A DNA stretch of 64,000 nucleotides from an uncultured Gammaproteobacteria bacterium (GCA_964588955.1 CAZPQJ010000001.1:93572-157571), one strand, 5' to 3'. Counted from the first letter of the stretch, positions 21,448 to 41,120 are shown. Numbers and translations: made by a program. Notes: generated from the letters alone by a model not told the origin.

Positions 21448-21514
21448 GCGTGACGGGCTCGGTTCTCTTATTGGAACGGAGGGGTCGGGATCCTGTTAAG
21501 AGAAAAGTTGGGTT

Positions 21515-21550
21515 GGTCAGATTGTATAGGCGGGGCCACTGTGCCCCGCC
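21515..21550 (+). repeat. 36-nt repeated element, copy B (GGTCAGATTGTATAGGCGGGGCCACTGTGCCCCGCC)
   Basis: 33 of 36 nt are identical to copy A at 7990. It lies upstream of the minus-strand LCP gene and is not positioned as a terminator for any annotated plus-strand gene. Confidence 0.6.
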
Positions 21551-21860
21551 GTGTTTCTAAATCGGTATCGTACAGATATGCTAGAGATATCATCCTGGAG
21601 TCTTTCACGATATACCTAGCCAAAGTAGGTTAGAAGCACACCCTCTCCAGAACCTCGTTTTTCAAACAGGTGCATGTTGGTAGGTGGTTTGTATAGACAA
21701 AAGCTATACAAACCATACCTAATCCGAACCTATGCATAAAACAACTCAACCGGAAGTCATACATCCAGTCGTGATAGATAATCACAATAGCTATTTCCTT
21801 TCCTTCATTTCTCCTACTTTCTCCACCTTTCTCTTTAAAAGGCTTCAGATTCGTCTCGCG

Positions 21861-21890
21861 AGAAAACAAAAACCCTTTCCGAAGAAAGAG
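21861..21890 (-). terminator. Rho-independent terminator downstream of tRNA-Val on the minus strand
   Basis: On the minus strand: stem CTCTTTC/GAAAGGG with a UUCG tetraloop, followed by TTTTTGTTTTCT. Confidence 0.6.
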
Positions 21891-21896
21891 TCTTTG

Positions 21897-21973
21897 TGGT
21901 GGGCGTTGGTGGATTTGAACCACCGACCTTTGCAATGTGAATGCAACGCTCTAACCAACTGAGCTAAACGCCC
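21897..21973 (-). tRNA. tRNA-Val (CAC), 77 nt, CCA encoded
   Basis: Reverse complement: acceptor GGGCGTT/AACGCCC, anticodon loop TTCACAT giving anticodon CAC, T-arm GGTGGTTCAAATCCACC, discriminator A and CCA. Confidence 0.85.
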
Positions 21974-22062
21974 GAGCGGGGAAAAAATACCGTATTGTCA
22001 GCGGTTTGGCAAGAGGCCTGGCGATTCACCATTTTCTGCGGGGCGTGTATCATAGGCATATT

Positions 22063-23388
22063 ATGCAAGTTATCAAATTGGCCGTTCAAGGATTAGATCG
22101 TGCGCGTCGCGTCGCGGAGGCGCGCCAGCAGCTGATTGGCCAACGGGGAATTGTTCGTGTTGATGTCAATACGGAAAAACAATTGATGCGCGTGGTGAGT
22201 ACGGAAGCAATTGATGAAGCAACGGTACGTGATTTGCTGAACGTGCAATCTGCCGCTGGCGTTTGCTCTGTGCCACTCGCCAAGCCCACGGTCGTGCAAC
22301 TGATCGGGATTTTTGCCGTGGTGCTCGGTGTCGGTTTTGTGTTTTCCAAACTTGGCTGGTTGCGTCCCGAGGTTGCGGTTGCTGGCGGGCTGGGATTTGG
22401 CGCGGTGTTTGTGATGGGACTCATCGCCGCCTCGTCGTCGTGCCTCGCACTGGCTGGAGGACTGATGCTTTCTCTTGTAACGTCGTATCGCCGACGCGGA
22501 CCCGTGGTGCAGTTTGTTCTCGGACGACTCGCGTCGTATGGTTTGCTTGGGGGAGTGATTGGGTTGATTGGAAAGACGTTTGTTCCGTCGCCAGCTGTCC
22601 TTGGGGGGATCACCATCGCGGCAGCTCTTTATATGATAGTGACGGGCTTGGGTATGTTGGAGATCGCCCCATCTTGGTTAAAACGCATCACGCCGACGGT
22701 TCCGCGCTCACTGACAAGCAGGATTTTATCAGCGGAGGGAAAGACCGGATGGATCATGCCGTTTGCTTTGGGGGCGGCAACCTTTTTTCTTCCGTGTGGA
22801 TTTACTCAGGCTTTACAAGTCTACGCGTTGACCACGGGTTCCTTTGCGGTCAGTGCCATGCTGTTGTTTGGCTTCGCTCTTGGGACAACACCGGGATTAC
22901 TTTTGTTAGGTTTCGCTTCCAGTTCGTTAAAGGGGAGAACGGCTCAGCATTTTTATCGTTTTGCTGGAGCGTTGATCGTGGTGCTCGGTGTCACGAGCGT
23001 GGTCAACGGCTTTACGATTCTTGGAGTCAATGTGCCGCGTATTTCTTTTGTGGAATCCGACACGGCGTATCGTGGCAGTCGTGTGGCCGATCCGAACGTC
23101 ATCGATAAAGGAAGTGTGCAATTCATCTCCCTTGCTTTGATCGATTCGGCTCCCTACTATGCTCCAAGCGATGAATATACGGTGAAAGCAGGGGAGCTGG
23201 TACGCATGCAAATTACCGGTGACGCTGGTGGGTGTCGGAGTATCTTTCAAATTCCTGGTGCGGGGGTAAGTGTGCCGCTCACGAAGGCGGTCAACACGGT
23301 TGAGTTCACTCCAACTTCTCCGGGAGATTTTGTCTTTAGTTGTTCCATGGGTATGTATCGCGGTACCCTGCATGTTGTCGCATCATAA
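22063..23388 (+). CDS. Fusion membrane protein: HMA-like N-terminal domain, DsbD_2/TauE-like TM core with conserved TM cysteines, and C-terminal cupredoxin-like domain
   Basis: MQVIKLAVQGL..VRVDVNTEKQLMRVV is a ferredoxin-like HMA fold without CxxC. About six TM helices carry Cys in TM1 (ASSSCLALAGG) and TM4 (FFLPCGFTQAL). The C-terminus YTVKAGELVRMQITGD..FVFSCSMGMYRGTLHVV resembles a Cupredoxin_1 (EfeO-type) fold with degenerate ligands. Start set at the ATG at 22063. Confidence 0.55.
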   Translation: MQVIKLAVQGLDRARRVAEARQQLIGQRGIVRVDVNTEKQLMRVVSTEAIDEATVRDLLNVQSAAGVCSVPLAKPTVVQLIGIFAVVLGVGFVFSKLGWLRPEVAVAGGLGFGAVFVMGLIAASSSCLALAGGLMLSLVTSYRRRGPVVQFVLGRLASYGLLGGVIGLIGKTFVPSPAVLGGITIAAALYMIVTGLGMLEIAPSWLKRITPTVPRSLTSRILSAEGKTGWIMPFALGAATFFLPCGFTQALQVYALTTGSFAVSAMLLFGFALGTTPGLLLLGFASSSLKGRTAQHFYRFAGALIVVLGVTSVVNGFTILGVNVPRISFVESDTAYRGSRVADPNVIDKGSVQFISLALIDSAPYYAPSDEYTVKAGELVRMQITGDAGGCRSIFQIPGAGVSVPLTKAVNTVEFTPTSPGDFVFSCSMGMYRGTLHVVAS

Positions 23389-23396
23389 ATATCTTT

Positions 23397-23621
23397 ATGC
23401 AAGAAGACGTTCCCTTCGATCCAGATTTTGACGCGGTGCCGCAAACAGACGCGTCCGTTCGTTCCGAGGCTCCTCTTTCCTCCGTCGTTGATATGCTTGG
23501 TCCCCGCCGTGCCTTTTTTGCTGGCTTCATTCTGTCGTGTCTGGTGCTCATGAGTATCGGTTTCGCCGCATTCCTTTCCACTTTGCTCTCGCTCGGTTCC
23601 GTTACTATTCCTGGCGGCTAG
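23397..23621 (+). CDS. Small hydrophobic protein (74 aa), in frame with and directly upstream of lepB
   Basis: One predicted TM helix (FFAGFILSCLVLMSIGFAAFLSTLL). Only a TAG separates it from the lepB reading frame, which begins at a TTG. Confidence 0.3.
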   Translation: MQEDVPFDPDFDAVPQTDASVRSEAPLSSVVDMLGPRRAFFAGFILSCLVLMSIGFAAFLSTLLSLGSVTIPGG

Positions 23622-23630
23622 ACACACGTC

Positions 23631-24290
23631 TTGATCGGTGCTATCCTGACGTCATTATTCTCTCTTTTTTTCTTCATGTTTTTTCGCCGTCGCGAGCCGT
23701 CACTTAACACTTTTTGGCACCGCACCTTTGGCCCAACGGTCGGTGCTGTTGCCGTTTTCTTGCTGGAGATTATTCAAATCATGGCGATCGCTGCGGCGAT
23801 CATTATCCCGATTCGTTATTTTTTGATCCAGCCGTTTTACGTGAAGGGGGCATCCATGGAACCAGAGTTTTACGACCATGAATATTTAATCATCGATGAA
23901 CTTTCCTATCGCTTAAACGATCCTACGCGCGGGGACATTATTGTCTTTCGTTACCCTCGCAACCCGAGCGAGTTCTTTATTAAGCGTGTGATTGGGTTGC
24001 CTGGGGAAACGGTTCAGGTTGATGATGGTCGCATTACCATTGTGAACACCGAGCACCCGGAAGGGGTGCAACTTGACGAATCGTATTTAGACGTGCAATT
24101 TAGCGCCGGACACAAAGAGATTCAGCTTGGCAGCGATGAATACTTTGTGATGGGAGACAATCGCGATGCGAGTCTCGATTCCCGTAGTTTTGGAGCCGTA
24201 AAACGCGACCTGATTGTGGGGAAGGTATGGCTACGCGGTTTGCCGCTAAATAAAGTGACTATTTTTCATGCCCCGGGCTATAATCTCTAA
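23631..24290 (+). CDS. lepB: Signal peptidase I
   Basis: Catalytic Ser box GASMEPEF, Lys box and GDNRDASLDSR. Annotated with a TTG start; an alternative ATG lies at 23676. Confidence 0.85.
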   Translation: MIGAILTSLFSLFFFMFFRRREPSLNTFWHRTFGPTVGAVAVFLLEIIQIMAIAAAIIIPIRYFLIQPFYVKGASMEPEFYDHEYLIIDELSYRLNDPTRGDIIVFRYPRNPSEFFIKRVIGLPGETVQVDDGRITIVNTEHPEGVQLDESYLDVQFSAGHKEIQLGSDEYFVMGDNRDASLDSRSFGAVKRDLIVGKVWLRGLPLNKVTIFHAPGYNL

Positions 24291-26207: not shown

Positions 26208-26239
26208 CAAACCCGCCAGCACGGCGGGTTTTGTCTTTC
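26208..26239 (+). terminator. Rho-independent terminator after rpsU
   Basis: Stem ACCCGCC/GGCGGGT, loop AGCAC, then TTTTGTCTTT. Confidence 0.7.
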
Positions 26240-26751: not shown

Positions 26752-28659
26752 ATGCTTGCAAAGCGTTCATCATTTTTACGCCTGGGAGGAGCCATCGGTA
26801 TGCTGGCCCTGTTTGTTGTTTTTGCGTTACAACCCGCTTCAGCCATTGCTGCCGACAGTCTGAATACCGTTGGTACAACGAGCGGTCTTGGCAACACCGA
26901 TTTGCTGACCATCATTGGCAACATCATTAATATCTTTTTGGGTCTGCTTGGCGTGGTCTTTTTGGTGCTCACCATTTACGCCGGGTTCTTGTGGATGACG
27001 TCGCAAGGCGATGAGGAGGTGGTGACCAAAGCGAAGAATATTATAAAATCGGCGACGATTGGATTGGTTCTGTGTTTAGCAGCTTTCGCCATTGCAACGT
27101 TTGTCATCAATTTATTGACTTCGGCGATTTTAGGAGGAGACAATGATACGCCGACGGGTCCAACGCCGGAATTGTTTTCCGACGCGTTGGGCAGTGGTGG
27201 TATTGAAGATCATTATCCGGATCGTAACGCGACAGACATTGCTCGCAATACCAAAATTTTAGTGACCTTTAAAAATCAGATTTACGTCCCCGCCTTTATT
27301 GTTGGATACGACGCTGGAGAGGATGCGACGATTGTTAGCGACGACACAGCTCCGGCAACAGCCAACGTAAACACCGGGAATTTTACCCTTTCCTGCGTGG
27401 CGGAAGATGGCACAGAAACAACCTATGGGTCGACGGATATCACCGTTTCTTTTACGGATGATTTAAAAACGTTTGTGTTTGACCCACCTATTTTGGGTTC
27501 CGCGCTTGCCCCTACTGATTGTACGGTGTTGCTGTCGAGCAACATTCTCACGGCCACGGGAGGGGATGCGATTGGTGCCAATTATGAGTGGTCCTTTCAG
27601 GTTTCCACTGAATTGGATTTAACTCCCCCGACGGTGGTGAACGTCATTCCTGGCGACGGCGATTCCGGTTACGGCAGAAACATCACTACACAAATTACCT
27701 TTAATGAAGCGGTTGATCCTACTACGGCTTCCGGTACCTACTCTTCAGCCGCTGGAGCTTTTGACAAGATTGTCATCTCTGCTGATCAAAGTGATCCACC
27801 GAGCGGATCGAAGACGGCCGTTGAAGGAACCTATGTACTCTCGAGCGGCTACAAAGTGGTGGAATTTACGCCGGCAGCCAGTTGTGGTGCAGATGTAGTG
27901 AATTCTTGCGGCGTGGCCATGTATTGTTTGCCGGGTCCGACCGATGAGGAGATGCGCGCGGGCCAGGAGGAGGAGATTGATTTGCGTGTTAAAGCGGCGA
28001 GCCTTGAAAGTCCCGTGTCGAGTGACGCTCCGGCTGCGGCGAACGTGCCCTACACAGGCGTGGCGGATTTGGCGGGCAATGCCTTAGATGGCAACGACGA
28101 TGGCACCGCTGGCGACGATTACTCCGAGTCGTTCAGTGTTACCAATGAAATTGTTTCTACGCCGCCGGGCATTGAAACCGTTTCTCCAAGCGTTCTTGAA
28201 CCGGACGTCAATTTGGATCAATCGGTGGTGGTGTTGTGGGATACCTTTATGCGTGCTTCGACGCTCACCAACGCCTATGTTTCCATCGTCGCCAATCCGG
28301 ATCATGAAATGTCCTACGTCAGTCGTGTTGCAACCGTGGATGCCGATGGTGTGGACGTGGCCTCCAGTGGCGGAACGGCCGTTGGAAGCGCCGTAACGAT
28401 TGTTCATGGAACCTTTCTAGAATCTATTGAAGATGATCCTTCGACTTCACCAAAAAATGAAGCCGTGTCTCAATTGTATTATCCGATCTTGCCGGACGAC
28501 ATTCAGAGTTTGTATCAAAACTGTTTTTATCCCGCTTCTGGACCGGGTGCATCAGAGTCATCTACCTGCGACGGCACGGCCAATAATCCCAACTGTTGTA
28601 ATGGAACAGCCACATCGACGCCGTTCAATCAATCAACCTACGTTTGCGGATCACCGTAA
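26752..28659 (+). CDS. Secreted/membrane-anchored surface protein with a VirB2/TrbC-like pilin-type TM hairpin and Ig-like extracellular repeats
   Basis: Signal peptide, then hydrophobic helix, GFLWMTSQGDEEVVTKAKN loop and a second hydrophobic helix. The rest is Thr/Ser/Asp-rich beta-rich sequence with Big/Ig-like repeats (TPPTVVNVIPGDGDSG..). The N-terminal module is shared with the downstream giant gene. Confidence 0.6.
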   Translation: MLAKRSSFLRLGGAIGMLALFVVFALQPASAIAADSLNTVGTTSGLGNTDLLTIIGNIINIFLGLLGVVFLVLTIYAGFLWMTSQGDEEVVTKAKNIIKSATIGLVLCLAAFAIATFVINLLTSAILGGDNDTPTGPTPELFSDALGSGGIEDHYPDRNATDIARNTKILVTFKNQIYVPAFIVGYDAGEDATIVSDDTAPATANVNTGNFTLSCVAEDGTETTYGSTDITVSFTDDLKTFVFDPPILGSALAPTDCTVLLSSNILTATGGDAIGANYEWSFQVSTELDLTPPTVVNVIPGDGDSGYGRNITTQITFNEAVDPTTASGTYSSAAGAFDKIVISADQSDPPSGSKTAVEGTYVLSSGYKVVEFTPAASCGADVVNSCGVAMYCLPGPTDEEMRAGQEEEIDLRVKAASLESPVSSDAPAAANVPYTGVADLAGNALDGNDDGTAGDDYSESFSVTNEIVSTPPGIETVSPSVLEPDVNLDQSVVVLWDTFMRASTLTNAYVSIVANPDHEMSYVSRVATVDADGVDVASSGGTAVGSAVTIVHGTFLESIEDDPSTSPKNEAVSQLYYPILPDDIQSLYQNCFYPASGPGASESSTCDGTANNPNCCNGTATSTPFNQSTYVCGSP

Positions 28660-28661
28660 CT

Positions 28662-31600
28662 ATGAAGCGCTTGTCTTTTTCAACGTGGCTTAAAGGACTG
28701 ACGGGGATGGGAATCCTCGCCGGCGTTCTTGGGGCCGCACCGGCATTAGCTCAGTCGCTGAATACAGGGATTGAAGAAGGGGGAGCTTTTCAGCAAGCGC
28801 TTGGGCTTGGCACGGGCGACATTAAAATCATCATCGCTAACATTATCCGCATCTTTCTTGGGTTGTTGGGGGTCATTGCGGTTAGTTTGATTGTCTACGG
28901 CGGGTTCTTGTGGATGACGTCTGCGGGTAATGAAGAGCGAACGCATAAAGCGAGAATGGTCATTACCAACGCCATTATTGGATTGGTGATCATCATGATG
29001 TCGTTTATTATCGTTTCGTTCGTTCTGAATAAACTGCTTGCAGCCACGGGATTTGGAGGAGGAACGTTTGATGAGCCTCCGACGTGCGATGGATGCATCC
29101 CTCCAGATTATTCCAGCGTCTTTACGATCGACTCTGTTTCTCCACAAGGCGATCAAACGATTAAAAATCTCACCGTGCGCTTGACGTTTAATAAAGATGT
29201 TGATGCGGCAACGGTTTCCGACAACATTACCGTGACGGCGGATGGATCAGACACCCCGGTGACGGGTACGTTTTCGGTGGTTGGCGATCGCGTGAGTTTT
29301 CATCCCGATGCTGTTTGCGAGGGGTATCCGGAAGAGTATTGTTTTGATAGTAATACACCGTACACAATTACTCTTGGTTCGGGATTAAGGAGTATAGAAG
29401 AGCTAGCTCTTTCTTGCGGAGGCTTTTATGATTCTTGCACCTATACGTTTACCAGTGGAGAGTTGGTTGATACGCAACCGCCAAGTGTTTCTGTAACATC
29501 GCCGGAATATGGCGATAGCGTATCGGTCAATGCTTTGGTGCCGATTCAGGCGCATGTAGAAGACGACGGTGGGGTCGCGGAAGTTGAATTTTATGTGGAT
29601 GGTAATTTGATTGACACTATCCAACCGGACGGCGACACCCCGCTTACGTTTGATGCCACCATTGATTGGGATACATCGGCTCTTACCGCTCTTGAACGAT
29701 ACGGGTTAACGGCCGTGGCGTATGACGTGAATGATCATTCAGAACGTTCCGATGAAGTCCGCGTGATCGCCCGCGCAGAGCATTGTTTTAACGGCGACTA
29801 TCCCACCACGGATCCGAATTTTCCAGACGCCGATGAAGAGGGGGAGGATTGCGGTGGAGCGGATTGTGGTGCCTGTGATGGTTCCTCGTGTCGGGCATCG
29901 GAGGATTTTACCTGCGCCGCCACCTGTGTGGATGGTGTTTGTACCGACGTGCCGGAGATCACCGCCGTTTCGCCGTTAAACGGCGCGGTGGGTTCCTACG
30001 TTACCATTAGCGGAACGAATTTTGGTAGCCGCGTGGGGAGCGTGAAATTTGGCGATGTTGAAGCCGAGCTTGCCAATTGTGACGATGCCTGGCAGACCTT
30101 CCAGGTGATTGCTGTTGTGCCAGAAAGATTAACGGTCGGTGAGACCTATCCCATTACGCTCACCACCGCTGACGGTTATACAGACACCACCAACGATGAT
30201 TACGGCACGCCAATTGACGACTTTGAAGTGAACACGACGGTGCGTCCAGGAATTTGTGCTGTTGGCCCCAGCTACGGCGAGGTGGGGAGTTTCACAACCG
30301 TGTATGGAAATAATTTTGGCGCCACACAAGGTGACGGTACGATCTATTTTGGTACCGAGGCTGCTTCCGCCTATGCTAGTTGGAACGATAGCCAAGTGAA
30401 AGTAGATGTTCCAACATTAGTTGCCAAAGATTATTTCATGACCTTGTGGGTTGGTGGGGTTTCTTCTAACGACGTGAACTTCACGGTTGTCGATAGTGAT
30501 GCGGAAGAAGCGCCGTATATTGATTCGGTGAGTCCCACATCTGGCCCGATTGGTCAGTATGTGACGATCACCGGTAGTGGTTTTGGTTCAACGCCTGATT
30601 TAGTTTACTTTATTAATAACAATCCTGATTCTCCAGATTATGGAGGGAGATTCGAGGCGGATGTTGATTTTCCCGCCGTGTGTGAAGATAACTATTGGTC
30701 GCACACGCAGATTATTGTCAAAGTGCCGATAGGGTTGGGGCAGACAGACTATTTGATTGAAGTGCGTAAAGATGATCAGCTTTCCAATGATGCGGATTTT
30801 GCCGTGACTGCCGGAACGGCTTCGCCGGGGATCTGTTTGGTGTCGCCGTCTGCCGCGCCGGTGGGTTATCCGAGTGTTACGTTGAGTGGAGAGGGGTTTG
30901 GAACGACAACGGGAGAAGTTCATTTTTACGACGGATCTGAAGGGGGAGACACGTCCATTGCTAGTTCATGGAGTGACACGGAAGCGGTGGTGGAGGTGCC
31001 AGTGGGAGCGACATCTGGCCCCGTGATTCTTTATGATGCGTTGTTCCGATCTTCCAATGCCGTTAATTTTGACGTGGGGGATTGTAATACCCAGAATGTG
31101 TGTGATGCCAATACGCAGCAGTGTTGCGCTTCCGGTGCCTGTATCGGTGCCAACGACGTGTGTCCGGAAGCGGCTCAAGTGAACGCTGAATACGTGTGGG
31201 AATTTTCGACGGGAGCGATCCCTGTTGTACCAACGGTGCAGGCACGGTGTTCAACCACGATGATTTCTCCTACCCCCTGGAGCGGCCGCGCGGGTGGGGA
31301 GTCCGTGTGCGTTAACGCTGGAATCTCTGCTACGTTTGATGTGGCCATGGATACCGCTTCCCTCAAAGCTGACGGCAACATTACGCTTGGTGCTTGCTCG
31401 GACGCGACCTGTGCTTCTTCCACCCCTGTGGATTTGGGAGACGTCAGTACGACGGCTACCAGTTTCGCTGTTTATCCAACGAGCAGTCTCGCGCCGGGTA
31501 CCACCTATCAAGTTGTTCTCTCTTCGGCGATTACTTCTTCGTTGGGGGTGGCCATTGCTCCAACACGCTGGACATTTACTACCAGTACCGATGCTAATGA

Positions 31601-34600
31601 TTGCGCCTATGCCGGGGTGATGGTCAGTCCATCATTGGCCACGATTGAAGAGCAGGATGGGTTAGCAACGTTTAACGCCGCTGCTTTGGCGGAAGACGCT
31701 TGCATTATTCTCAATAACAACGACACCACGTGGTCGTGGTCGGTAGATCCGTCTGATCGTTATGTTTCGTTCTCCGACGCTGCCGTGGCTGGGTGTACGG
31801 GCGAGCCAACGAGTTGTCAAACGGTGATGGGTATTGCCGAAGGAGACAGTATTGTGACTGCGGAAGAAAGCACTCAAGGGTTGGATGATGACGCGGAAGT
31901 GGACGTCAACTTCACCAACCCCTATGCCGTGGATTATTGGCCGGGATGTAGCAACGGCGGTACGGCCTGTTTGAACGCGGCGATTGGCGCGCAATTTAAT
32001 ACAACGATGGATGACGTGACGGTGGAGTCGGCTGGAGCTATACATCTTTATGCCTGTAGTGATGAATCCTGCTCAACGCATACCGAGGACATTGGGATTG
32101 ATGTGGAACGTTCCGACGCTGACGAGACTGTTGTCAACATCACCCTCAACGATGATGATTATCCAAGCGGTAATCTTGCCACGCGCACCTACTACGAAGT
32201 GGTTTTTTCGAGTGCGATTGAATCGCAAAGCGGAGTGCCGCTTAATGAACATTATAACGGCGACTTCAGCTGGACCTTTTTGACGCGGGCGACGGATGAA
32301 ATTTGCGCCGTTGATCATGTGGTAGTGGATCCATCCGCCTCGACGGTCACCTATGTGGGAGCCACCTCCGTATTTGATTCCGTGCCCTATGGGGATCCGG
32401 ATGATTGTTCTACGAGTGGTCAGCGATTAACCGCCACGGGTTATGATTGGGGTTGGAGCATAGCCAATACGACTATTGCGAATTTGTGGCAGGATGGCGT
32501 GCCAGTTCAGGTAGTGGAAGATCGTATCCCTGACGGCTGCACAACATCGTGTTTGTCGGAAGGAACGTTAAGCTACGAGGCTATTTGTGGAGAAGACGCT
32601 GATGGAGACGGGAGTTTGTTGGATCCTGGTGAGGACTGCGATAATGGCACTGGGCTTGCTGGGGCGGGGTGTTCTTCCACCTGTCAAAGTCTTGGAACGA
32701 CGGCATGTTCCAGTGAAGAGGGATCCAATTGCTGTGGCAACAATAATCTAGATACGGGAGAAGAATGTGATGACGGAAATACGGCCAACAGCGACGGGTG
32801 TTCTAATGTATGTTTGAACGAAGGAGAGGCTGGGGGCGTGAGCACCTGCGGCGACGAGGGAATCGTGACCCATTCTGATTTGGTGAACTCCCGCGGCTGG
32901 GCCGGGGGAGAAGATTGCGACGATGGCAATACAGATAGTGGCGATGGTTGTTCCAATCTGTGTTTGAACGAAGGGTCTGTTTCCCGTCGCGACCTCAATG
33001 GTATCTGCGGTGATGGCGAAGTCGATGCGCCGGCCGAACAGTGTGACGACAGCGGTACGCGCAATGGCGACGGTTGTTCCGAGTACTGTTTATACGAAGG
33101 TAGCGACGCCTGTAGTAATCCAACCAGCGATCGTAACTGCTGTGGCAACGAGCAGACGGAAGCTTCCGCCTTTGAATCTTGCGACGACGGCAACACGGTG
33201 AATGGTGATGGCTGTTCGGCCGTGTGTTTGCTCGAAGGTTCTTCACGTGGGTATGCCACGCCAAGCTGGTGTGGAGACGGCACCACGGGAACCGGTGAAG
33301 CGCCAGCAGATACGGTGAGTGCTTGTGAGGTGAGTTTGAGTAGTCTCGATGGATTTGTGGAACCAGAACAGGTGGCCGTGATTGCTTCCACAGCTCCGGG
33401 CGAAGTCGTCGATGGTTTGGCCAGCACAACCGTTTCCGCTGCTGCCGAAGGAGAGACCGGTCAAGCCGCATTGAACTTAAGCTGTTCCTGTGCTGAAGAT
33501 AATCAATGCACGAGTTCTGACAGCTCCCTGAGCCTTGGATGTGGCACGGGAGGGTGTTGCTACGAACGTCCAAAGTTTTTGGGCTACACACCGAGTGACG
33601 GTGATGCCTGCCGTAACGCGCTGGTGGCGTTCGATTTTGATACCGAAATGGCTCTTGCGACCTTTACCGATAATCTTACTATCGAGCTCGTGCTGGAAGG
33701 GGATGAAGCGTGTCCTTACTCCTCATCTTCCACTGCTTTTGACACCTCGGGCAATGTCTTTGTGAAGGTCTGGAGTTCTGCTAAGCACCTGCTGAGCCGG
33801 CTGGTTGATCCAGCGCAGGCAAGCGATACCGCCTGTTATTTACCAATCACCTTTACGTCCTCGCCTACGGAGGACGGTGGTGAACGTGTGACTGCTATCT
33901 ACACGCAACTTTTGGAGGCTGACCGCAGTTATATTGTGAGTATTAAGGGGGATCCTTCGCATGATGGTTCTGGGGTGCGATCCGCCACGGGTGTTGGTTT
34001 GGATCACAATTATGCGCGCGTGATTTCTATCGGCGACAATGTTTGTAGCTTCGACACGGTCAGTGTACAAGACGTGGATGCTGATTCCCCCGGGCTGTTT
34101 ACGACGGTAGGGGAAGCGCACCCGTACACGGCAACGGCAATGACAATGATCGGGGGTGTGGCTCAAGCGATCGTTCCTATTCCCGATGTCTATGATTGGG
34201 ATTGGTCTAAAACGTGGTGGTCGACCGACGACACGGTTTTGCAAGTTGGAACGCAAACCGATTCTGGATCGGAAAGCAACAATACCGTTACAGCACAGAA
34301 TGACAACGGCACCGCCTCGATTTACGCTTCCGCCCAAATTACCGATGATACGTTGTTTTCTCCGAGTACAGCGTTGACCAATGTCTATGGCTCCGCGGAA
34401 GCCACTACTAACTTGTGTAAAAATCCTTGGCCAGCATTGAAATCCGGCCACAGCTGGGACCCGTTCCGTGATGGCGCGTTTGGTAATCACGACCCAGATG
34501 GGGATGGTGTTGTTGAAGTAATGCGCGGCGCGGGTTGGATGCATTTTACTACCTACTATTGTCGCGATGATATTGGCATAAGTACCAATGAGAACGGTGC

Positions 34601-37600
34601 CGAAGTTTCCGCTACCGGCACGGCAGCCGATGTGGTGTTTGTGGAAGATCCGCCGAGCGACGTGCTCAAAGAGTATCTCTTTAAATTGAGCGGCGGTGAC
34701 GCTGTTGGTATTCGCATTGCCAAAAATGACGACCTATTGAGTATTGGTGATTGGTACGATGCGCAAGGATTCACGGGTGCGCCATCAGAAACTACGGTTG
34801 ATGGCTATCAAGCCTTGCGTGATGGTCGAACCGTATATGTGAGTGCTGCGAACGTGAGTGGAGATTTTTCCGGAACAATTTATCCGAATGTGTACGTGAT
34901 CTCTTATAACGAAGGGGCTTCCGAAGAAACAATTGCCATCTTCGACCAAATGCTCGACAACTGGCAGTTCAATAGCAATATTTCCAACGATGGAATTTGT
35001 TATGAAGTGACAGGGGATTCTGCCGGTGAGCCAACGTTTGATGCTGATGGTCAAACGGTGAGTTGTACCTCCGATCTAGACTGTACGTCTGGAGCCTGCC
35101 GCGCGGGTAAAGACAAATTGCGCCGCGACATGCAGCGTCTGACTGATGTGAAAGAGATTGCCGGAGATTTGCAAGCATATGGGGAAGCTAATGGTCGTTG
35201 TAGTGCCACCAGCACCACTTCATGCACTTCCGACAGTGATTGTCCAGGGGTGGAAACGTGCCAGGCGCTGTACCCCACGATTGATTCTGGCAGTTTCTTG
35301 CGTGCACAATCGAGCAGTGCTTGGGATTCGTGGCAGAACGTACTCGGTACAACGCTTGGGGTAACCTTGCCAACCGATCCACTGAACGCCTACGCCGAGT
35401 GCGGCACAACGGGCGGTAGCTATGGTGACTACAATGCTGACACCTGTTGGTATGAAGCGGGGGCGCAGTATGCGTGTCCTACGGGTTCTCACGTTTATAA
35501 TTATAAAAATATCGGTGGCACAGCTTACCGGGTGTGGACAGATCTTGAATACCACTATGAAAGTGGAGTCACCGAGTGGCACGGTCGTGTTGATAGCGAG
35601 GTTGCGGATGGGCTTTCCGTTGTGGCCGGACAAGCGTTTACCGGCATCGTCGATGGATTCCAAGAAGACGCCACCTGCGATGGTACGGTAATGGGTAATT
35701 CTGCAGCTTGCGGGGACGGCGTCATTGGCGAGAGTGAAACATGTGAAATTGGAGATACGTCAACGACCAGTTGCCATGCGTTAACTTGTCTTTCCGCTGA
35801 TCCAGATTATGATGGCGCGGCTTGCTTGGTTGATTGCGCGGATACAACGATTTGTCCGGGTGGGGACAAGAACGCTGACGGGATCTGCGATGGTGGTCCG
35901 GCTGGCGGTCAAGCTTGTGGCACCGGAGACGTGGATTGTACCGATACATCAATTTGTTCCACCTATCCGTACTTTGAACGCACGGAAGGGACGCAAGTAA
36001 CTACGTGTGATCGTTCAACCTGTGATGCTTTCTCTGCCGCTGCAGACGCCGCGTGTGTACCGTTCCGTTGCGGTAACGGAGTCGTGGATGATGGAGAGGA
36101 TTGCGACGACGGTTCCCACAACGGCAACTATGGTTATTGTGGCACCAGCTGTCAGTGGGACTCCACGGCCTTCTACTGCGGCGACGGTACGCTCGCTGGC
36201 GGAGAAGTTTGCGATAAGGGTGCCAGCAACGGTCAGTACGCCCTTTCTTCTGCCGATACGTGTTCGGCCACTTGCGATGGTCCGGGGTTGTATTGCGGCG
36301 ACAGCGTTGTGAACGGTTCAGAAGTTTGCGATGGTACTTCCGAGACCTGGGCTGGTTCGTTGTGCCCCGATGGGGTCACTACGTGCACCTCGAACGCGGA
36401 TTGTGGAGGAAACACCTGCGGGGCAGGAGGGTTAATCTACAACGGTGCTTGTCCGACAGCTTCATTGTGTGTGGGGGGAGATTACGACGGATTCCCCTGT
36501 GGTAACTTTTCTTGGCCAGATGCGGTGTCTATTATGAGTGGCTATTCTGACTTCGCGATTGACTTCACCGAAGGAGCTTATGGAGTGCTTTGCCAAAATT
36601 ATGGTGGCACGTGCGTTGATTCGGCTGTCTATCCTACCTACCACATCCGCTCGTGTAATGATTCCGGTACCTCGGCTGACTGTTCTTGGAACACCTGGCA
36701 GGATTTCTGTAAAGCGGACACGGCTTCCTGTGGTAACGGAGTGGTAGATGGTACGGAGGCCTGTGATGACGGTAATGATTCAAATAATGACAGCTGCACC
36801 AATCAATGCACCGTGAACATTTGCGGTGATGGGTATTTGTACACCGACCATGAATCTTGCGATCGTGCGGAAGAAAACGGACAGGAGTGTACAGCTGATT
36901 ATGGCAGCACCTGCCGTTACTGTTCCTACGATTGCACGTACCTCACTTCTTCTGGTTCTTATTGTGGAGACGGAGTGGTACAAGATTCCGACGAGTTATG
37001 TGACGGCTCTGAGCTCACCCAGTTCCGTTGTTTCGACGACGCGACGACACAGCAGGTTGGAGATGTTTGTTATGAGGCAAATGCTGCCGAAGGGAGCGGT
37101 TGTGAATCGGGATTCACCTGTCGCAATCTTGGAGTTTGTAATGGTGGATTAAACGATGGTATGTACTGTACCCAAACGGATGCGGTTTCTGGGAAAGATC
37201 TGGCTTTCTGTGCCGGGGGCACCTGCGTACTCCCAACCTGTGCCGACGACTGTGGTTCCACCTGCCCGTTCAGCTATGCTGATCAGGCGGTGGACGTAAC
37301 CAGTGAAGAGGCGGGGGCTACAGCCAATGACAGTATCAGTTTATATAGTCTCGACACGGACGGCTCGCCGAATTTGGCGACGCTGACCATTCCCGCCTGC
37401 CGCATTGAAAGCGGGTTGACCGCTGACATTTCTGACGCGGATCGAGATTATTCCGACGTCGATATTATGTTCGTGTTGGACGACTCGCAATCCATGGGTG
37501 AGCCGCTTGGTTCATCTACGGGTCTAGAAGTGTTGCGCGATGCTGTTAGCGACGCGATCGATCAATTGTATGATGCTTATCACGGCACGAACGCCGAGGT

Positions 37601-38528
37601 GCGCATTGGCTTTGCGTTTATTGGCGGTAAACATGGGTACGACTTAGATGGGGATGGTGTCTATGAAACCGTTGATGACTATGGCACGACGGAGTTCTTT
37701 AACTTTGCTTATGACTTTGGCGAAGAACGTTATTTCGTTGATGACACGCAGGAAGGGGATCTTGATGCCGCTATTACGACCGCTCTTTCTGTTACCTATC
37801 ACGCGGACAAAAAAACAGAGAGTATTCAATGTTACAATCCTGATGAAGATCCATCCTGTGTGGAGGTAACGGGTACGCCGCTCATTCAGGTGCTACGCAG
37901 TGTGAAAGATGCCTTCGCGAATGACACGAATGTTGGAGATGATGACGCGAAGTATGTCATCCTGTTTACCGATGGGGATATTAAAAATGACGCTTCCGAA
38001 CTGACTGCGGTTGAAGATGCCTTCGCCTTGACTGACGCTTCACACAAGTCGTATGTGGAGCAAGTGACCGACACTATTGATGAACTTAAAGACAGCGGTA
38101 TTACACTGTTCAGTGCGGCTTTTGCCGAAAGTGATTCCTGTGGTGCGTATCAGGCGGCAAAATGGTCGAATATGGATTGCTCACCCGCAGAGCGCGTCTG
38201 TGAAAAACAGTATGATGAAGGGGATTACAGCTGTGAGCCGCCATCGAATAACATTACCTACGCCTACTCTGCCACCGACGCGGATGGATTGGTAGAAATG
38301 TATCAGTCCATCATCGACGCGATCTTAAATGTTACGGTGACTCTTACTGATGCCGACGGCAACACCGCAACCTCGACGGTCGACATTGGTGACTCCATTG
38401 ACCTGCCGTTGCCAGTATTCTTTGCTTGCGATGCCTCCGCGGAAAGCAACCTGAACATAGAAGTGACCTTTACGGGTTCCGGGGCTATTGAATTTAGCAA
38501 CATCCAGTTGAACATGTGTTCGCCGTAA
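28662..38528 (+). CDS. Giant (3288 aa) cell-surface protein: pilin-like TM hairpin, TIG/Ig-like domains, ~13 Myxococcus-type Cys-rich repeats (DUF4215-like), C-terminal vWA domain
   Basis: The N-terminus GFLWMTSAGNEERTHKARMVITNAIIGLVIIMMSF is paralogous to 26752. TIG-like segments include ITAVSPLNGAVGSYVTISGTNFG. Repeats follow CGDGxxxxxExCDDGNxxxGDGCSxxC (e.g. CGNGVVDDGEDCDDGSHNGN). The vWA domain has MIDAS DIMFVLDDSQSMG and KYVILFTDGD at about 37455-38110. Confidence 0.7.
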   Translation: MKRLSFSTWLKGLTGMGILAGVLGAAPALAQSLNTGIEEGGAFQQALGLGTGDIKIIIANIIRIFLGLLGVIAVSLIVYGGFLWMTSAGNEERTHKARMVITNAIIGLVIIMMSFIIVSFVLNKLLAATGFGGGTFDEPPTCDGCIPPDYSSVFTIDSVSPQGDQTIKNLTVRLTFNKDVDAATVSDNITVTADGSDTPVTGTFSVVGDRVSFHPDAVCEGYPEEYCFDSNTPYTITLGSGLRSIEELALSCGGFYDSCTYTFTSGELVDTQPPSVSVTSPEYGDSVSVNALVPIQAHVEDDGGVAEVEFYVDGNLIDTIQPDGDTPLTFDATIDWDTSALTALERYGLTAVAYDVNDHSERSDEVRVIARAEHCFNGDYPTTDPNFPDADEEGEDCGGADCGACDGSSCRASEDFTCAATCVDGVCTDVPEITAVSPLNGAVGSYVTISGTNFGSRVGSVKFGDVEAELANCDDAWQTFQVIAVVPERLTVGETYPITLTTADGYTDTTNDDYGTPIDDFEVNTTVRPGICAVGPSYGEVGSFTTVYGNNFGATQGDGTIYFGTEAASAYASWNDSQVKVDVPTLVAKDYFMTLWVGGVSSNDVNFTVVDSDAEEAPYIDSVSPTSGPIGQYVTITGSGFGSTPDLVYFINNNPDSPDYGGRFEADVDFPAVCEDNYWSHTQIIVKVPIGLGQTDYLIEVRKDDQLSNDADFAVTAGTASPGICLVSPSAAPVGYPSVTLSGEGFGTTTGEVHFYDGSEGGDTSIASSWSDTEAVVEVPVGATSGPVILYDALFRSSNAVNFDVGDCNTQNVCDANTQQCCASGACIGANDVCPEAAQVNAEYVWEFSTGAIPVVPTVQARCSTTMISPTPWSGRAGGESVCVNAGISATFDVAMDTASLKADGNITLGACSDATCASSTPVDLGDVSTTATSFAVYPTSSLAPGTTYQVVLSSAITSSLGVAIAPTRWTFTTSTDANDCAYAGVMVSPSLATIEEQDGLATFNAAALAEDACIILNNNDTTWSWSVDPSDRYVSFSDAAVAGCTGEPTSCQTVMGIAEGDSIVTAEESTQGLDDDAEVDVNFTNPYAVDYWPGCSNGGTACLNAAIGAQFNTTMDDVTVESAGAIHLYACSDESCSTHTEDIGIDVERSDADETVVNITLNDDDYPSGNLATRTYYEVVFSSAIESQSGVPLNEHYNGDFSWTFLTRATDEICAVDHVVVDPSASTVTYVGATSVFDSVPYGDPDDCSTSGQRLTATGYDWGWSIANTTIANLWQDGVPVQVVEDRIPDGCTTSCLSEGTLSYEAICGEDADGDGSLLDPGEDCDNGTGLAGAGCSSTCQSLGTTACSSEEGSNCCGNNNLDTGEECDDGNTANSDGCSNVCLNEGEAGGVSTCGDEGIVTHSDLVNSRGWAGGEDCDDGNTDSGDGCSNLCLNEGSVSRRDLNGICGDGEVDAPAEQCDDSGTRNGDGCSEYCLYEGSDACSNPTSDRNCCGNEQTEASAFESCDDGNTVNGDGCSAVCLLEGSSRGYATPSWCGDGTTGTGEAPADTVSACEVSLSSLDGFVEPEQVAVIASTAPGEVVDGLASTTVSAAAEGETGQAALNLSCSCAEDNQCTSSDSSLSLGCGTGGCCYERPKFLGYTPSDGDACRNALVAFDFDTEMALATFTDNLTIELVLEGDEACPYSSSSTAFDTSGNVFVKVWSSAKHLLSRLVDPAQASDTACYLPITFTSSPTEDGGERVTAIYTQLLEADRSYIVSIKGDPSHDGSGVRSATGVGLDHNYARVISIGDNVCSFDTVSVQDVDADSPGLFTTVGEAHPYTATAMTMIGGVAQAIVPIPDVYDWDWSKTWWSTDDTVLQVGTQTDSGSESNNTVTAQNDNGTASIYASAQITDDTLFSPSTALTNVYGSAEATTNLCKNPWPALKSGHSWDPFRDGAFGNHDPDGDGVVEVMRGAGWMHFTTYYCRDDIGISTNENGAEVSATGTAADVVFVEDPPSDVLKEYLFKLSGGDAVGIRIAKNDDLLSIGDWYDAQGFTGAPSETTVDGYQALRDGRTVYVSAANVSGDFSGTIYPNVYVISYNEGASEETIAIFDQMLDNWQFNSNISNDGICYEVTGDSAGEPTFDADGQTVSCTSDLDCTSGACRAGKDKLRRDMQRLTDVKEIAGDLQAYGEANGRCSATSTTSCTSDSDCPGVETCQALYPTIDSGSFLRAQSSSAWDSWQNVLGTTLGVTLPTDPLNAYAECGTTGGSYGDYNADTCWYEAGAQYACPTGSHVYNYKNIGGTAYRVWTDLEYHYESGVTEWHGRVDSEVADGLSVVAGQAFTGIVDGFQEDATCDGTVMGNSAACGDGVIGESETCEIGDTSTTSCHALTCLSADPDYDGAACLVDCADTTICPGGDKNADGICDGGPAGGQACGTGDVDCTDTSICSTYPYFERTEGTQVTTCDRSTCDAFSAAADAACVPFRCGNGVVDDGEDCDDGSHNGNYGYCGTSCQWDSTAFYCGDGTLAGGEVCDKGASNGQYALSSADTCSATCDGPGLYCGDSVVNGSEVCDGTSETWAGSLCPDGVTTCTSNADCGGNTCGAGGLIYNGACPTASLCVGGDYDGFPCGNFSWPDAVSIMSGYSDFAIDFTEGAYGVLCQNYGGTCVDSAVYPTYHIRSCNDSGTSADCSWNTWQDFCKADTASCGNGVVDGTEACDDGNDSNNDSCTNQCTVNICGDGYLYTDHESCDRAEENGQECTADYGSTCRYCSYDCTYLTSSGSYCGDGVVQDSDELCDGSELTQFRCFDDATTQQVGDVCYEANAAEGSGCESGFTCRNLGVCNGGLNDGMYCTQTDAVSGKDLAFCAGGTCVLPTCADDCGSTCPFSYADQAVDVTSEEAGATANDSISLYSLDTDGSPNLATLTIPACRIESGLTADISDADRDYSDVDIMFVLDDSQSMGEPLGSSTGLEVLRDAVSDAIDQLYDAYHGTNAEVRIGFAFIGGKHGYDLDGDGVYETVDDYGTTEFFNFAYDFGEERYFVDDTQEGDLDAAITTALSVTYHADKKTESIQCYNPDEDPSCVEVTGTPLIQVLRSVKDAFANDTNVGDDDAKYVILFTDGDIKNDASELTAVEDAFALTDASHKSYVEQVTDTIDELKDSGITLFSAAFAESDSCGAYQAAKWSNMDCSPAERVCEKQYDEGDYSCEPPSNNITYAYSATDADGLVEMYQSIIDAILNVTVTLTDADGNTATSTVDIGDSIDLPLPVFFACDASAESNLNIEVTFTGSGAIEFSNIQLNMCSP

Positions 38529-38539
38529 CCCTTGCATCT

Positions 38540-39325
38540 ATGGAGTACCAACCACAACCGTATATTTATGCCTCCGAGGTCGGACAAACGCCGGCCGTGC
38601 CTCCAACCAATTGGTGGCAAACGCACAAAACTCTCCTTGTGAAGATTGGGATTGGTTTGTTAATCGCGGCCGTTGTGGGACTGACGGTCCTGTTTCTCGT
38701 ACGGCGCATAGCCGCCAATAAAGCGGCGCGATTGGCAGAAGTCGCTCAGGAACAAACTGCCGTGAGTTCGGCGCAGAAAGATTGTGATCAAACAAAAAAT
38801 CCCGACAAGTGCAATCAACGCATTGCCGCTGATCTGGCGCAGTCAACCGGCAAAGTTTCTTTTTGTCATGAGCTCTCAGGAGATGCATTTGATAACTGTA
38901 TTACCTTGGCGGCGTTGACGGCCAAGAGTTTAACCGCGTGTAATCAGGTGAATAATGCGGAGAAAAAAACTGCGTGCACCAATGCTGTCAACGCCTTGCT
39001 TCATCCATATGTTTTGCAAGTATCCGCAGATGTCCAAACGGCGATAGATGCGCGTAATCCGGATATGTGCGCCACGGTTGAAGATGTGGACTTGTGTTTG
39101 GAGTTGGTGGGTGTTGCCGATCGGGATCTTGATGGGTTGAGTGAGGAGAAAGAACAGACCCTGGGTACCAGCGACACGTCTATTGATTCCGATGCCGATG
39201 GATTGTCTGATGCCGATGAAGTCAATATCTGGAAAACGGATCCAGCGAAGACCGACACCGACGGGGACAGTTATCCCGATGGCACAGAGGTAAAAGGGGG
39301 GTATAATCCTCTAGGAAGCGGTTAA
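38540..39325 (+). CDS. Single-pass membrane protein with Cys-containing ectodomain and C-terminal thrombospondin type-3-like Ca-binding repeats (paralog 1 of 3)
   Basis: TM helix IGIGLLIAAVVGLTVLFLV, then DxDxDGxxDxxE repeats (DRDLDGLSEEKE, DSDADGLSDADE, DTDGDSYPDGTE). A GTG at 38516 is an alternative start. Confidence 0.55.
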   Translation: MEYQPQPYIYASEVGQTPAVPPTNWWQTHKTLLVKIGIGLLIAAVVGLTVLFLVRRIAANKAARLAEVAQEQTAVSSAQKDCDQTKNPDKCNQRIAADLAQSTGKVSFCHELSGDAFDNCITLAALTAKSLTACNQVNNAEKKTACTNAVNALLHPYVLQVSADVQTAIDARNPDMCATVEDVDLCLELVGVADRDLDGLSEEKEQTLGTSDTSIDSDADGLSDADEVNIWKTDPAKTDTDGDSYPDGTEVKGGYNPLGSG

Positions 39326-39410
39326 CGAGATTATCGGCGTGAGCCCCCTAGCCACTAGCAACTGTCCGCTCCGACCGGCCACTATCCACTAGCCACTTAA
39401 TCACTTTTCT

Positions 39411-40112
<702 letters not shown>

Positions 40113-40136
40113 CGAGAGGTATTTTAAGCGTGCTGT

Positions 40137-41120
40137 ATGGCCGAGGCACCCAATCAATTGCAAAAACCCGCCGGTGCGGAAACTCCCGCATCTGCCAATG
40201 AGCCAGTCATTCACGTGATGCCGGCGGAGTTTCGCGCGGGCAAAATGCCGATGAGCGCCTTGCCGAAGCCAGACATCGCGGCGCCTCCGGTCGCGCCGGT
40301 TGCTCCTCTCGCGCCTGTGCCGCCCAAAGCGCTCCCGCCGAAGCCGGGCTTAGCAACAAAAAAACGGCGCCTGCCGCCGGTGTTAGTTATTGGGTTGATT
40401 CTTTTTCTGGCGATTGTGATTGGGGCAGTGGCGGTGTTGCTTTCCCTTAATCAACCGACCGTGAACGTGGCAGTCAATAACACCCCCGTCAACGTCAATA
40501 CAGAAACGCCTCCAGAACCAACGCCAACCCCTACCCCAACGCCAACTCCAACCCCGATCGAACCCGTGGGTGGAGCCGACACGGACAGTGACGGGCTCAC
40601 CGATATTGAAGAAATTTTGTTTGGATCCGATACCCGCAATCCGGATTCCGATGGCGATACGTATCTTGACGGCAACGAGGTCTATCATCTGTATAACCCG
40701 CGCGGCAACGCTCCCGGCCTTCTGGTCGATACGGGTTTTGCGCGCGAGTTTACTGCCGAAGGATTGGACTTTCAGGTGGTCTATCCGTCACGCTGGACCG
40801 CGCAGTTATTGGAGACGCGCGGAGTGATCTTTAAAGTGCCAACGGGGGAGTTTGTTCAGGTTAGTCGTGTTGCTAAAGACGCGAGTCTTGATGTGGTGAG
40901 CTGGTATCTTACGCAGTCCCCGGAGGTGAAGGCGGAAGATGTCACTCCGCTCACTACCCGCCAGGGCTACGCGGGAATCTTAAGTCCAGATAAACTATCC
41001 ACCTATCTGGATCTCGGAGATCGTGTTTACATCATCAACTACAACGTAGGTGACCTGAAAACGATTAACTTTTTGACGACCTATCAGATGATCGTCAATA
41101 GTTTTATCCTCAAAAAATAA
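40137..41120 (+). CDS. Membrane protein with Pro-rich N-terminus, (PT)n linker, TSP3-like repeats and a C-terminal globular domain (paralog 3 of 3)
   Basis: TM helix VLVIGLILFLAIVIGAVAVLLSL, then PTPTPTPTPTPTP, DTDSDGLTDIEE and DSDGDTYLDGNE, followed by a ~150-aa C-terminal domain. Confidence 0.55.
   Translation: MAEAPNQLQKPAGAETPASANEPVIHVMPAEFRAGKMPMSALPKPDIAAPPVAPVAPLAPVPPKALPPKPGLATKKRRLPPVLVIGLILFLAIVIGAVAVLLSLNQPTVNVAVNNTPVNVNTETPPEPTPTPTPTPTPTPIEPVGGADTDSDGLTDIEEILFGSDTRNPDSDGDTYLDGNEVYHLYNPRGNAPGLLVDTGFAREFTAEGLDFQVVYPSRWTAQLLETRGVIFKVPTGEFVQVSRVAKDASLDVVSWYLTQSPEVKAEDVTPLTTRQGYAGILSPDKLSTYLDLGDRVYIINYNVGDLKTINFLTTYQMIVNSFILKK

Follow-up and report, generated by a model that had tools for sequence, protein, structure and literature searches.

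The sequence analysed here is a stretch of 64,000 nucleotides (hereafter the window, whose numbering is used throughout) from a genome recorded as an uncultured Gammaproteobacteria bacterium (GCA_964588955.1, CAZPQJ010000001.1:93572-157571); the organism appears to be an ultra-small member of the Patescibacteria. Five closely packed open reading frames (ORFs) on the + strand occupy positions 26752-41120, where the initial annotation of this stretch had placed five consecutive same-strand genes for surface proteins, and all five are present. The first two, gene 1 and a giant gene 2, begin with a hairpin module of the VirB2-like pilin family PF18895 and continue into large ectodomains, and genes 3-5 encode smaller proteins with a transmembrane (TM) helix and thrombospondin type 3 (TSP3) repeats or a TSP3-like segment. 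PF18895 pilins and the pilin arrays of Patescibacteria type IV secretion systems (T4SSs) were known before; as far as could be found, the fusion of predicted VirB2-like pilins of Patescibacteria to giant adhesin-type bodies in a conserved cassette is new. A large part of the diversity of uncultured bacteria belongs to the Patescibacteria, and those that have been cultivated live attached to host cells. We regard as evenly balanced the proposal that genes 1 and 2 are modular VirB2-type pilins which display metal-dependent adhesin-type ectodomains at the cell surface.

Two genes with a pilin hairpin and a large ectodomain

Gene 1 (26752-28659, + strand) encodes a protein of 635 amino acids (aa) with a signal peptide, a VirB2-like pilin hairpin, a Gly-rich linker, immunoglobulin (Ig)-like beta-sandwich domains and a small Cys-rich C-terminus. 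Gene 2, the giant (28662-38528, + strand), encodes 3,288 aa from its ATG, namely a signal peptide, a pilin hairpin and an ectodomain of about 3,150 aa. This ATG yields a normal signal peptide and lines up with the start of gene 1. The giant ORF runs unbroken, and an identical 3,273-aa product (from an internal ATG start) is recorded from two independent assemblies, one at NCBI and one in Logan.

The N-terminal modules of the two proteins are 46% identical over 141 aa (E 1e-22), and hydropathy profiles of both display a signal peptide followed by two long hydrophobic segments, so that the shared two-helix module which had been proposed for the pair is confirmed. AxA motifs are visible before the mature part in both sequences, where the signal peptides would be cleaved. 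The Pfam family PF18895 (T4SS_pilin), with a curated cut-off of 26.6 bits, matches gene 1 with 41.3 bits and gene 2 with 30.0 bits, and both proteins are members of this family. The module covers aa 45-126 of gene 1 (26884-27129, + strand), as delimited by Pfam, by an AlphaFold2 (AF2) model and by comparison with small pilins, and aa 54-123 of the giant (28821-29030, + strand), as delimited by the PF18895 match. The AF2 model of gene 1, built on 45 homologues and having a mean predicted local distance difference test score of 81.8, arranges helices 51-82 and 88-126 as a hairpin, followed by beta-sandwich domains, whose closest solved folds in a Foldseek search are the Ig domains of LdtMt2 and the surface (S)-layer protein SbsC. 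Gene 1 also carries a Big_5 domain above the Pfam cut-off. NF045849, the NCBIfam family of pilin-like conjugal transfer proteins of mycoplasma integrative conjugative elements, is matched by gene 1 with 43.5 bits (cut-off 40) and by gene 2 with only 25.2 bits, and PF04956 is precomputed on some orthologues of gene 1. The family scores of both proteins and the helical hairpin in the model are in agreement with the likeness to VirB2/TrbC-type pilins that had been noted from the sequence.

The path to proven conjugative pilins is longer. A 36-sequence profile of the module matched none of the solved conjugative pilins in the PDB, and hhalign to Agrobacterium VirB2 (taken from an annotated Ti plasmid) gave a probability of 5%, with the TDP motif, the LGxxG helix, the W-M ending of helix 1 and helix 2 in register. 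The protein P0143, which is matched by the window module profile (E 1e-46), scores 302 bits against PF18895 and 83.8 bits against PF04956 (TrbC/VirB2), and by this transitive link homology of the module to proven conjugative pilins is plausible but indirect. VirB2, TrbC and TraA (PF04956) resemble genes 1 and 2 in having a leader peptide and two hydrophobic helices with a short loop; they are, however, about 70-120 aa long, often cyclised or trimmed, and encoded within T4SS operons, whereas genes 1 and 2 differ from small pilins in their sizes of 635 and 3,288 aa and in their large C-terminal ectodomains. In both proteins a pilin module is followed by a Gly/Ser linker and then by adhesin-type domains, the layout of a modular pilin-adhesin with a predicted adhesive role.

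Six related loci have a three-gene pilin array, in which the gene 1 orthologue and the giant are separated by a canonical small pilin (L041:11932-12231, L043:8906-9220, L048:11839-12126, L052:11907-12194, L063:11890-12189 and L064:7155-7439). These six small pilins are stop-to-stop ORFs of 125-173 aa, consist of a signal peptide and two helices, and end right after helix 2, and the Gly/Ser linker of gene 1 and the giant starts exactly at the point where they stop. A hidden Markov model (HMM) of the module, run over the 64-kb window, found no further pilin module and no small pilin.

An exhaustive HMMER search of 1.84 billion cluster representatives with the two window modules returned 51,922 proteins at E<=1e-3, of which 15,464 were at E<=1e-10. 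The best 150 module proteins comprised 21 plain small pilins (122-280 aa), 57 proteins with one N-terminal module and a tail of 150-4,800 aa (total length 281-4,978 aa), and 72 proteins with 2-17 tandem modules in one polypeptide. Big_5, TIG and fn3 domains were found in the tails of six long-tailed proteins that were scanned. A pilin module joined to a large ectodomain is therefore a widespread design, of which the pair in the window is one conserved instance. P0143 is one of the 72 tandem-module proteins, a "poly-pilin" of 1,775 aa with 11 PF18895 stretches; we know of no description of such tandem-hairpin proteins, which are relevant to whether the module forms polymers or functions inside the membrane.

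Conservation of the cassette and constraint on the hairpin

For gene 1, over 250 full-length homologues (40-70% identity) were found; all carry PF18895 and Big_5 and are labelled Patescibacteria or Parcubacteria. A scan of species-representative genomes with gene 1 gave at least 582 confirmed matching stretches; among the matches listed, the closest records are from Uhrbacteria, and others are from Magasanikbacteria, Paceibacter and Patescibacteria. From the 84 related loci that were fetched, and from which the giant orthologues were taken, it is apparent that the gene 1 orthologue is directly followed by a same-strand, module-headed ORF of 2,256 to more than 3,545 aa in nearly all loci with enough downstream sequence, the few exceptions having shorter ORFs (1,023-1,813 aa) or none detected. 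The order of gene 1 and giant is kept despite differing flanks. Complete genomes with the pair include CP129476.1 and OZ246408.1 (loci L079 and L030). A TM+TSP3 ORF of about 270 aa lies directly 3' of the giant in 21 of the 28 loci with enough sequence, and two loci have two such genes. Several hundred Patescibacteria genomes share the conserved cassette of gene 1, giant and TM+TSP3 gene, which is always surrounded by housekeeping genes; it is common in sequence databases, and its gene 1-giant architecture is not rare. Many records of metagenome-assembled genomes with this Patescibacteria-specific cassette (L006-L084) bear the title "uncultured Gammaproteobacteria bacterium", which looks like a mislabel from bulk submission.

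Thirty-six complete giants are collinear, with lengths of 3,056-3,450 aa and identities of about 30-40% (56% for the closest, L002); conservation among them is highest in the hairpin, in parts of repeat block 2 and in the central module. A homology search with the C-terminal 463 aa of the giant gave no match, though the giant itself was in that collection, and a profile of its central region returned short proteins only, never giants. At four loci (L065, L070, L076 and L081, one of them titled Magasanikbacteria) a giant of 2,256-2,478 aa is directly followed by an ORF of at least 1,000 aa, which would be either a split gene or an assembly frameshift.

The hairpin is the best-conserved segment of both proteins. 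In the gene 1 family its mean identity to the window sequence is 0.57, a value that no 76-aa window of the ectodomain reaches (maximum 0.53), and in the giants it is 0.52, with just 0.4% of other windows equally conserved; for comparison, identity is 0.14 for the signal peptide and 0.12 for the single TM helix of gene 3. Being the most conserved part in each protein, the hairpin does not behave as an ordinary signal-anchor, and the stronger constraint on it than on the ectodomains points to specific contacts rather than to mere anchoring. Modules of the gene 1 type and of the giant type form separate lineages, the nearest neighbour being of the same type for 78 of 84 and 74 of 78 modules, respectively. 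Identity between the gene 1 and giant modules of the same genome is 0.514 vs 0.449 across genomes, a value reached in 0 of 10,000 permutations, and co-evolution of the two hairpins is only suggested by these comparisons.

The same data bear on the alternative that the hairpin is just a convenient double-TM anchor without pilin function, and that five unrelated surface genes merely happen to be adjacent. The whole window is tightly packed, which makes adjacency weak evidence of a common function; no T4SS context was seen in the window or among the flank families listed for the 84 loci; and the 2-17 tandem hairpins in 72 of the best 150 module proteins could be purely membrane-embedded. Nevertheless, identities of 0.57 and 0.52, above those of the ectodomains, stand against 0.12 for a true TM anchor, that of gene 3, and the order of gene 1 and giant is kept in nearly all 84 loci, with a TM+TSP3 gene next in 21 of 28. 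We consider a plain anchor very improbable.

Giant ectodomain and the TSP3 genes

The giant consists of the hairpin, Big_5, Big_7, three to four TIG domains, two Big_5 domains, Cys-rich repeats, a stretch of about 780 aa without Pfam families, further Cys-rich repeats, a von Willebrand factor A (vWA) domain and a small C-terminal beta domain. The Ig-like stalk, from Big_5 to the last Big_5 by Pfam, extends over aa 154-1208 (29121-32285, + strand). Big_5, Big_7, three TIG domains and DUF4215 are all above the Pfam cut-off, which upholds the TIG/Ig-like domains predicted earlier. The Cys-rich acidic repeats form two blocks: block 1 at aa 1358-1567 (32733-33362, + strand) with five copies, identified by TIGR02232, DUF4215 and a self-built HMM, and block 2 at aa 2350-2813 (35709-37100, + strand) with seven copies, identified by a Pfam scan and the self-built HMM. 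TIGR02232 scores 99.9 bits on the giant (cut-off 20.8) and DUF4215 39.6-49.8 bits, and the self-built HMM counts 12 solid and two marginal copies, close to the "about 13" first reported. No DNA tandem repeats were found within the giant gene, and the protein repeats are therefore old and diverged rather than a compositional or assembly artefact.

Between the two blocks lies a conserved, previously unannotated module, here called U2 (aa ~2011-2295; 34692-35546, + strand), with a predicted Mog1/PsbP/DcrB-like alpha/beta fold, and the locus may define a new binding module. Profiles of both halves of the central region gave no meaningful match against PDB sequences. Secreted Patescibacteria proteins of 323-782 aa that stand alone (P0125-P0135) also have a U2-like module as their main domain, and one of them is named "MopE-related" by NCBI. 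An enzyme or toxin role was considered for the giant and set aside, as no enzymatic fold was detected in gene 1 or U2, and no such fold was present in the regions with Pfam matches.

The vWA domain lies at aa ~2934-3170 (37461-38171, + strand), with the motif DDSQSMG of the metal-ion-dependent adhesion site (MIDAS) at aa 2940-2946 (37479-37499). PF00092 (VWA) scores 18.3 bits on the whole giant, which is below threshold, and 26.5 bits when aa 2900-3288 are scanned alone (cut-off 23.8); giant orthologues match VWA with E-values down to 2e-10, and four of five match VWA_2. Five aligned orthologues all have D41 and S45, have S or T at the first Ser, and agree in the position of the GTP and TDG motifs, so that the MIDAS residues DxSxS...T...D are present and metal binding is predicted. 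The C-terminal vWA domain with an intact MIDAS, as initially annotated, is thereby supported. In profile searches, the weak matches of the C-terminal region include the vWA-bearing pilin PilB (PDB 7b7p, E 0.003), and the C-terminal beta domain weakly matches the C region of Bap. Conservation within the giant is lowest in the vWA region, in whose place some lineages have unrelated sequence.

Streptococcus sanguinis PilB (PDB 7b7p) follows the same principle as the giant, a pilin module fused to a vWA/MIDAS adhesive module, but belongs to an unrelated pilin family (a type IV pilus, one N-terminal helix, a prepilin peptidase) and has one added module as opposed to about 3,150 aa. The vWA part of PilB is said to be its adhesion module. 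Bap, SiiE, RTX adhesins and the tip adhesins RrgA and SpaC of sortase pili join many Ig-like domains in a row to a metal-dependent binding head, as is predicted for the giant. These adhesins are anchored by sortase/LPXTG or by type 1 secretion retention modules, and unlike the giant they have no pilin-hairpin anchor. The Cys-rich acidic repeats are shared with Myxococcus-type Cys-rich/TSP3 proteins (TIGR02232; CglD, MtsC, MtsD), and the TSP3 segments of genes 3-5 weakly match the CglD and MtsD models; these matches are, however, confined to repeat segments and reach 25-27 bits vs family cut-offs of 400-800, so that the proteins are not orthologues, and the organism is not a myxobacterium.

The domain content of the ectodomains bears on another alternative, in which the pair would form a surface lattice or a wall-spanning scaffold, S-layer-like or a spacer, serving envelope architecture instead of host recognition. 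Consistent with such a structural role, the pair is found widely in its clade, its length and domain order are fixed, its neighbours are housekeeping and envelope genes (including LytR_cpsA_psr, signal peptidase I, DsbD-like, FtsA and FtsZ), and the S-layer protein SbsC is among the fold matches of gene 1. On the other hand, the vWA/MIDAS head is variable and swapped between lineages, as would be expected of a ligand-binding tip, combinations of TIG, Big and vWA domains are typical of adhesins, and a self-assembly domain was not recognised in the pair. A structural envelope role is accordingly judged to be unlikely.

Gene 3 (38540-39325, + strand) encodes 261 aa, or 269 aa from a GTG at 38516, with a TM helix, Cys-containing helical repeats and TSP3 repeats. 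Gene 4 (39411-40112, + strand; 233 aa) has a Pro/Ala-rich N-terminus, a TM helix, a Thr/Pro linker and three TSP3 repeats, and gene 5 (40137-41120, + strand; 327 aa) has a TM helix, a Pro/Thr linker, a TSP3-like segment and a C-terminal domain of about 130 aa without known family. TSP3_bac (PF18884, cut-off 25 bits) scores 27.7 bits on gene 3 and 50.2 bits, in three stretches, on gene 4, and DxDxDGxxDxxE motifs are present in the TSP3 segments. No Pfam family is above cut-off in gene 5, which does not reach the TSP3_bac threshold; its identity to gene 4 is 51% over 51 aa (E 3e-13). The three genes had been described as tandem TSP3 paralogs, which holds for the TSP3 repeats of genes 3 and 4 but not for full-length paralogy, since the common part, a TSP3 segment of 45-68 aa at 47-51% identity, measures just about 60 aa and the proteins are otherwise unrelated. 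Most of the 17 complete post-giant TM+TSP3 ORFs that were aligned have the Cys-helical architecture of gene 3, and the number of genes corresponding to genes 4 and 5 varies across lineages. A promoter-like site at 39279-39307, ahead of gene 4, has 10 of 12 matches to the consensus, which is its sole basis. The C-terminal domain of gene 5 (about 130 aa, 40707-41117) gives a weak Pfam match to PsbP_2 (E 0.048) and, by hhalign, a match to U2 with a probability of 3.6% and agreement at the motif level only (WY..Q, GY, YxIxYN); the two matches are a hint that it and U2 might share a related fold.

Proposed function and genomic surroundings

If genes 1 and 2 are modular pilins with adhesin-type ectodomains, the Sec signal peptide would be cleaved and the hairpin would be inserted in the cytoplasmic membrane, its two termini facing outward, by analogy with the topology of VirB2-family pilins, and the C-terminal bodies would project from the cell. 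Gene 1 would provide a short stalk of Ig-like domains, and the giant a long fibre composed of Ig/TIG domains, of Cys-rich acidic repeats that would be disulfide-bonded and probably Ca-binding, and of the Mog1/PsbP-like binding module, with the variable vWA/MIDAS head near its far end binding a ligand in a metal-dependent manner. The two hairpins would probably associate with each other and, where one is present, with the small pilin, and gene 3 would act as a conserved TM accessory with TSP3 Ca-binding loops. Adhesion to host cells and Ca dependence are predicted here from the domain families.

Several results weigh against this proposal. The companion T4SS genes for which the initial annotation had suggested a search elsewhere in the genome were not seen in the parts covered: VirB4, VirB6, VirD4 and relaxase were not seen among the larger ORFs of the window that were scanned, the 8.8 kb beyond its left end contain housekeeping genes only and no T4SS gene, and of the 44 families matched by 63 large ORFs beside the 84 loci, the 25 listed include no T4SS ATPase family, the recurrent ones being LytR_cpsA_psr (13) and HisRS (7). 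A tblastn search with the mature pilin module gave no match in 72,556 plasmids, and in both the PDB profile search and hhalign direct similarity to solved conjugative pilins is below significance. A sister-genome control on the within-genome similarity of the hairpins was only modestly positive (43 vs 27). About 450 aa of the giant (aa 1568-2010) are outside any recognised domain. Finally, host-specific adhesins seldom keep their length and domain order so constant, which could also reflect a structural role in the envelope.

In a more specific alternative, gene 1 and the giant would be minor or tip pilins that a T4SS encoded elsewhere pulls out of the membrane and builds into a VirB2-like pilus with a small-pilin shaft, the adhesive bodies being carried on the filament or at its tip in the manner of FimH, the vWA-bearing PilB of S. 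sanguinis and the tip adhesins of sortase pili. Free-standing small pilins, present between gene 1 and the giant in six loci, have the same module, the constraint on the hairpin would fit a polymerisation interface, and the PDB match to PilB (7b7p) indicates that the design exists elsewhere. T4SSs with essential VirB2-like pilin arrays have been reported across Patescibacteria, and about 40% of pilin-bearing genomes have pilins away from virB4 (PMC12102498, PMC10633639). Against these points, no T4SS gene was seen beside the pair in any locus examined, the 64-kb window is without a small pilin as judged by the module HMM, and for steric reasons a helical pilus could accommodate subunits with a 350-kDa tail only at its tip or in small numbers. 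Moreover, we know of no Patescibacteria T4SS for which a pilus has been demonstrated. The six inter-gene small pilins and the essential pilin arrays in the literature thus favour a pilus, while such large tails, and flanks in which T4SS genes were consistently not seen, call for caution, and we regard pilus display as possible but rather doubtful.

A broader version is, in our view, similarly speculative: the PF18895 hairpin may be a general display scaffold of Patescibacteria, with gene 1 and the giant as priming or tip subunits of a T4SS-dependent pilus that cultivated relatives need for growing as epibionts, and with the variable vWA head as the part that selects the host cell. If this were true, a conjugation-derived pilus would have been turned into a modular attachment organelle, of which the long-tailed and poly-pilin proteins would be further parts.

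The known Patescibacteria pilins offer the closest comparison for the pair. VirB2-like PF18895 pilins and arrays of 2-11 pilin genes have been described and are essential in Southlakia epibionticum, and pilin genes are near virB4 in 1,135 of 1,948 assemblies (PMC12102498; PMC10633639; review PMC12857230); the one genetically tested system is a T4SS with an essential array of VirB2-like pilins (PMC10633639). These pilins (Wang et al. 2023, PMC10633639; Quinonero-Coronel et al. 2025, PMC12102498) share with the window pair the Pfam family, the module of signal peptide and two helices, and the phylum, and, like the pair, their arrays consist of divergent tandem genes that are often apart from virB4. 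They are, however, treated as small subunits, mostly beside virB4, whereas in the pair the module heads proteins of 635 and 3,288 aa, and the two genes stand among housekeeping genes as part of a fixed cassette that includes a TSP3 gene. Fusions of pilin modules to large proteins are not mentioned in PMC12102498, PMC10633639 or PMC12857230, a supplementary table listing PF18895 as VirB2 without lengths, and no description of pilin-fused giants was found in the literature searched, most papers in subscription journals being outside the search; the view that the architecture had not been described as a system is in keeping with this. Surveys that score every PF18895 match as "VirB2 pilin" pool very different proteins. 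The pair suggests a testable role for Patescibacteria pilins, the display of host-binding proteins, and makes the variable vWA head a candidate determinant of host specificity.

With the exception of five ORFs without a Pfam match, the larger ORFs of the window that were scanned are ordinary chromosomal genes. Upstream of the locus are genes for ScpAB, ParAB, RelA/SpoT, topoisomerase I, DprA, Der, LytR_cpsA_psr, a DsbD-like protein, signal peptidase I, HisRS, S21 and YqeY, and downstream are genes for YbeY, DAGK, FtsA, FtsZ, NrdR, HtrA and pyruvate kinase. The G+C content of the locus is 0.50-0.535, the same as in the remainder of the window, and the possibility that 26752-41120 is a recent mobile island was rejected on the basis of this ordinary composition and of the conserved housekeeping synteny of the cassette. 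A strong terminator-like GC-rich hairpin at 26209-26231, between the S21 and YqeY genes and found by a consensus scan only, is a possible upstream limit of the transcription unit.

The cassette is preceded, at 19864-24290 and also in L002 and L003, by genes for LytR_cpsA_psr, for a DsbD-like membrane protein (22006-23388) and for signal peptidase I. A giant with 158 Cys residues might make use of the DsbD-like protein; alternatively, the arrangement may be plain inherited gene order. In L005, among the closest Uhrbacteria loci, the gene 1 orthologue is immediately preceded by a surface-type ORF of 1,712 aa with four Calx-beta stretches (L005:4453-9588). At the corresponding place L008 (4845-9065), L035 (5733-9836) and L006 (81-3923) have large ORFs of 1,281-1,407 aa, and the window has none; one further member of the flank set matches Calx-beta.

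Elsewhere in the window, the ORFs at 12546-13172 (- strand, 208 aa) and 13320-14792 (+ strand, 490 aa) match no Pfam family. The region 60001-64000, with a G+C content of 0.41-0.46 vs about 0.52 elsewhere, contains a tRNA-Asp gene at 62823-62900 and two ORFs (60483-61301 and 61344-62681) without a Pfam family, and it may be a foreign island. Two adjacent genes on the - strand at 47905-50804 resemble the subunits of ATP-citrate lyase, with Citrate_bind (172.9 bits) and ATP-grasp domains in one and a C-terminal Citrate_synt domain and a CoA-ligase domain in the other; this pair is unexpected, because Patescibacteria-like genomes are normally without enzymes related to the tricarboxylic acid cycle.

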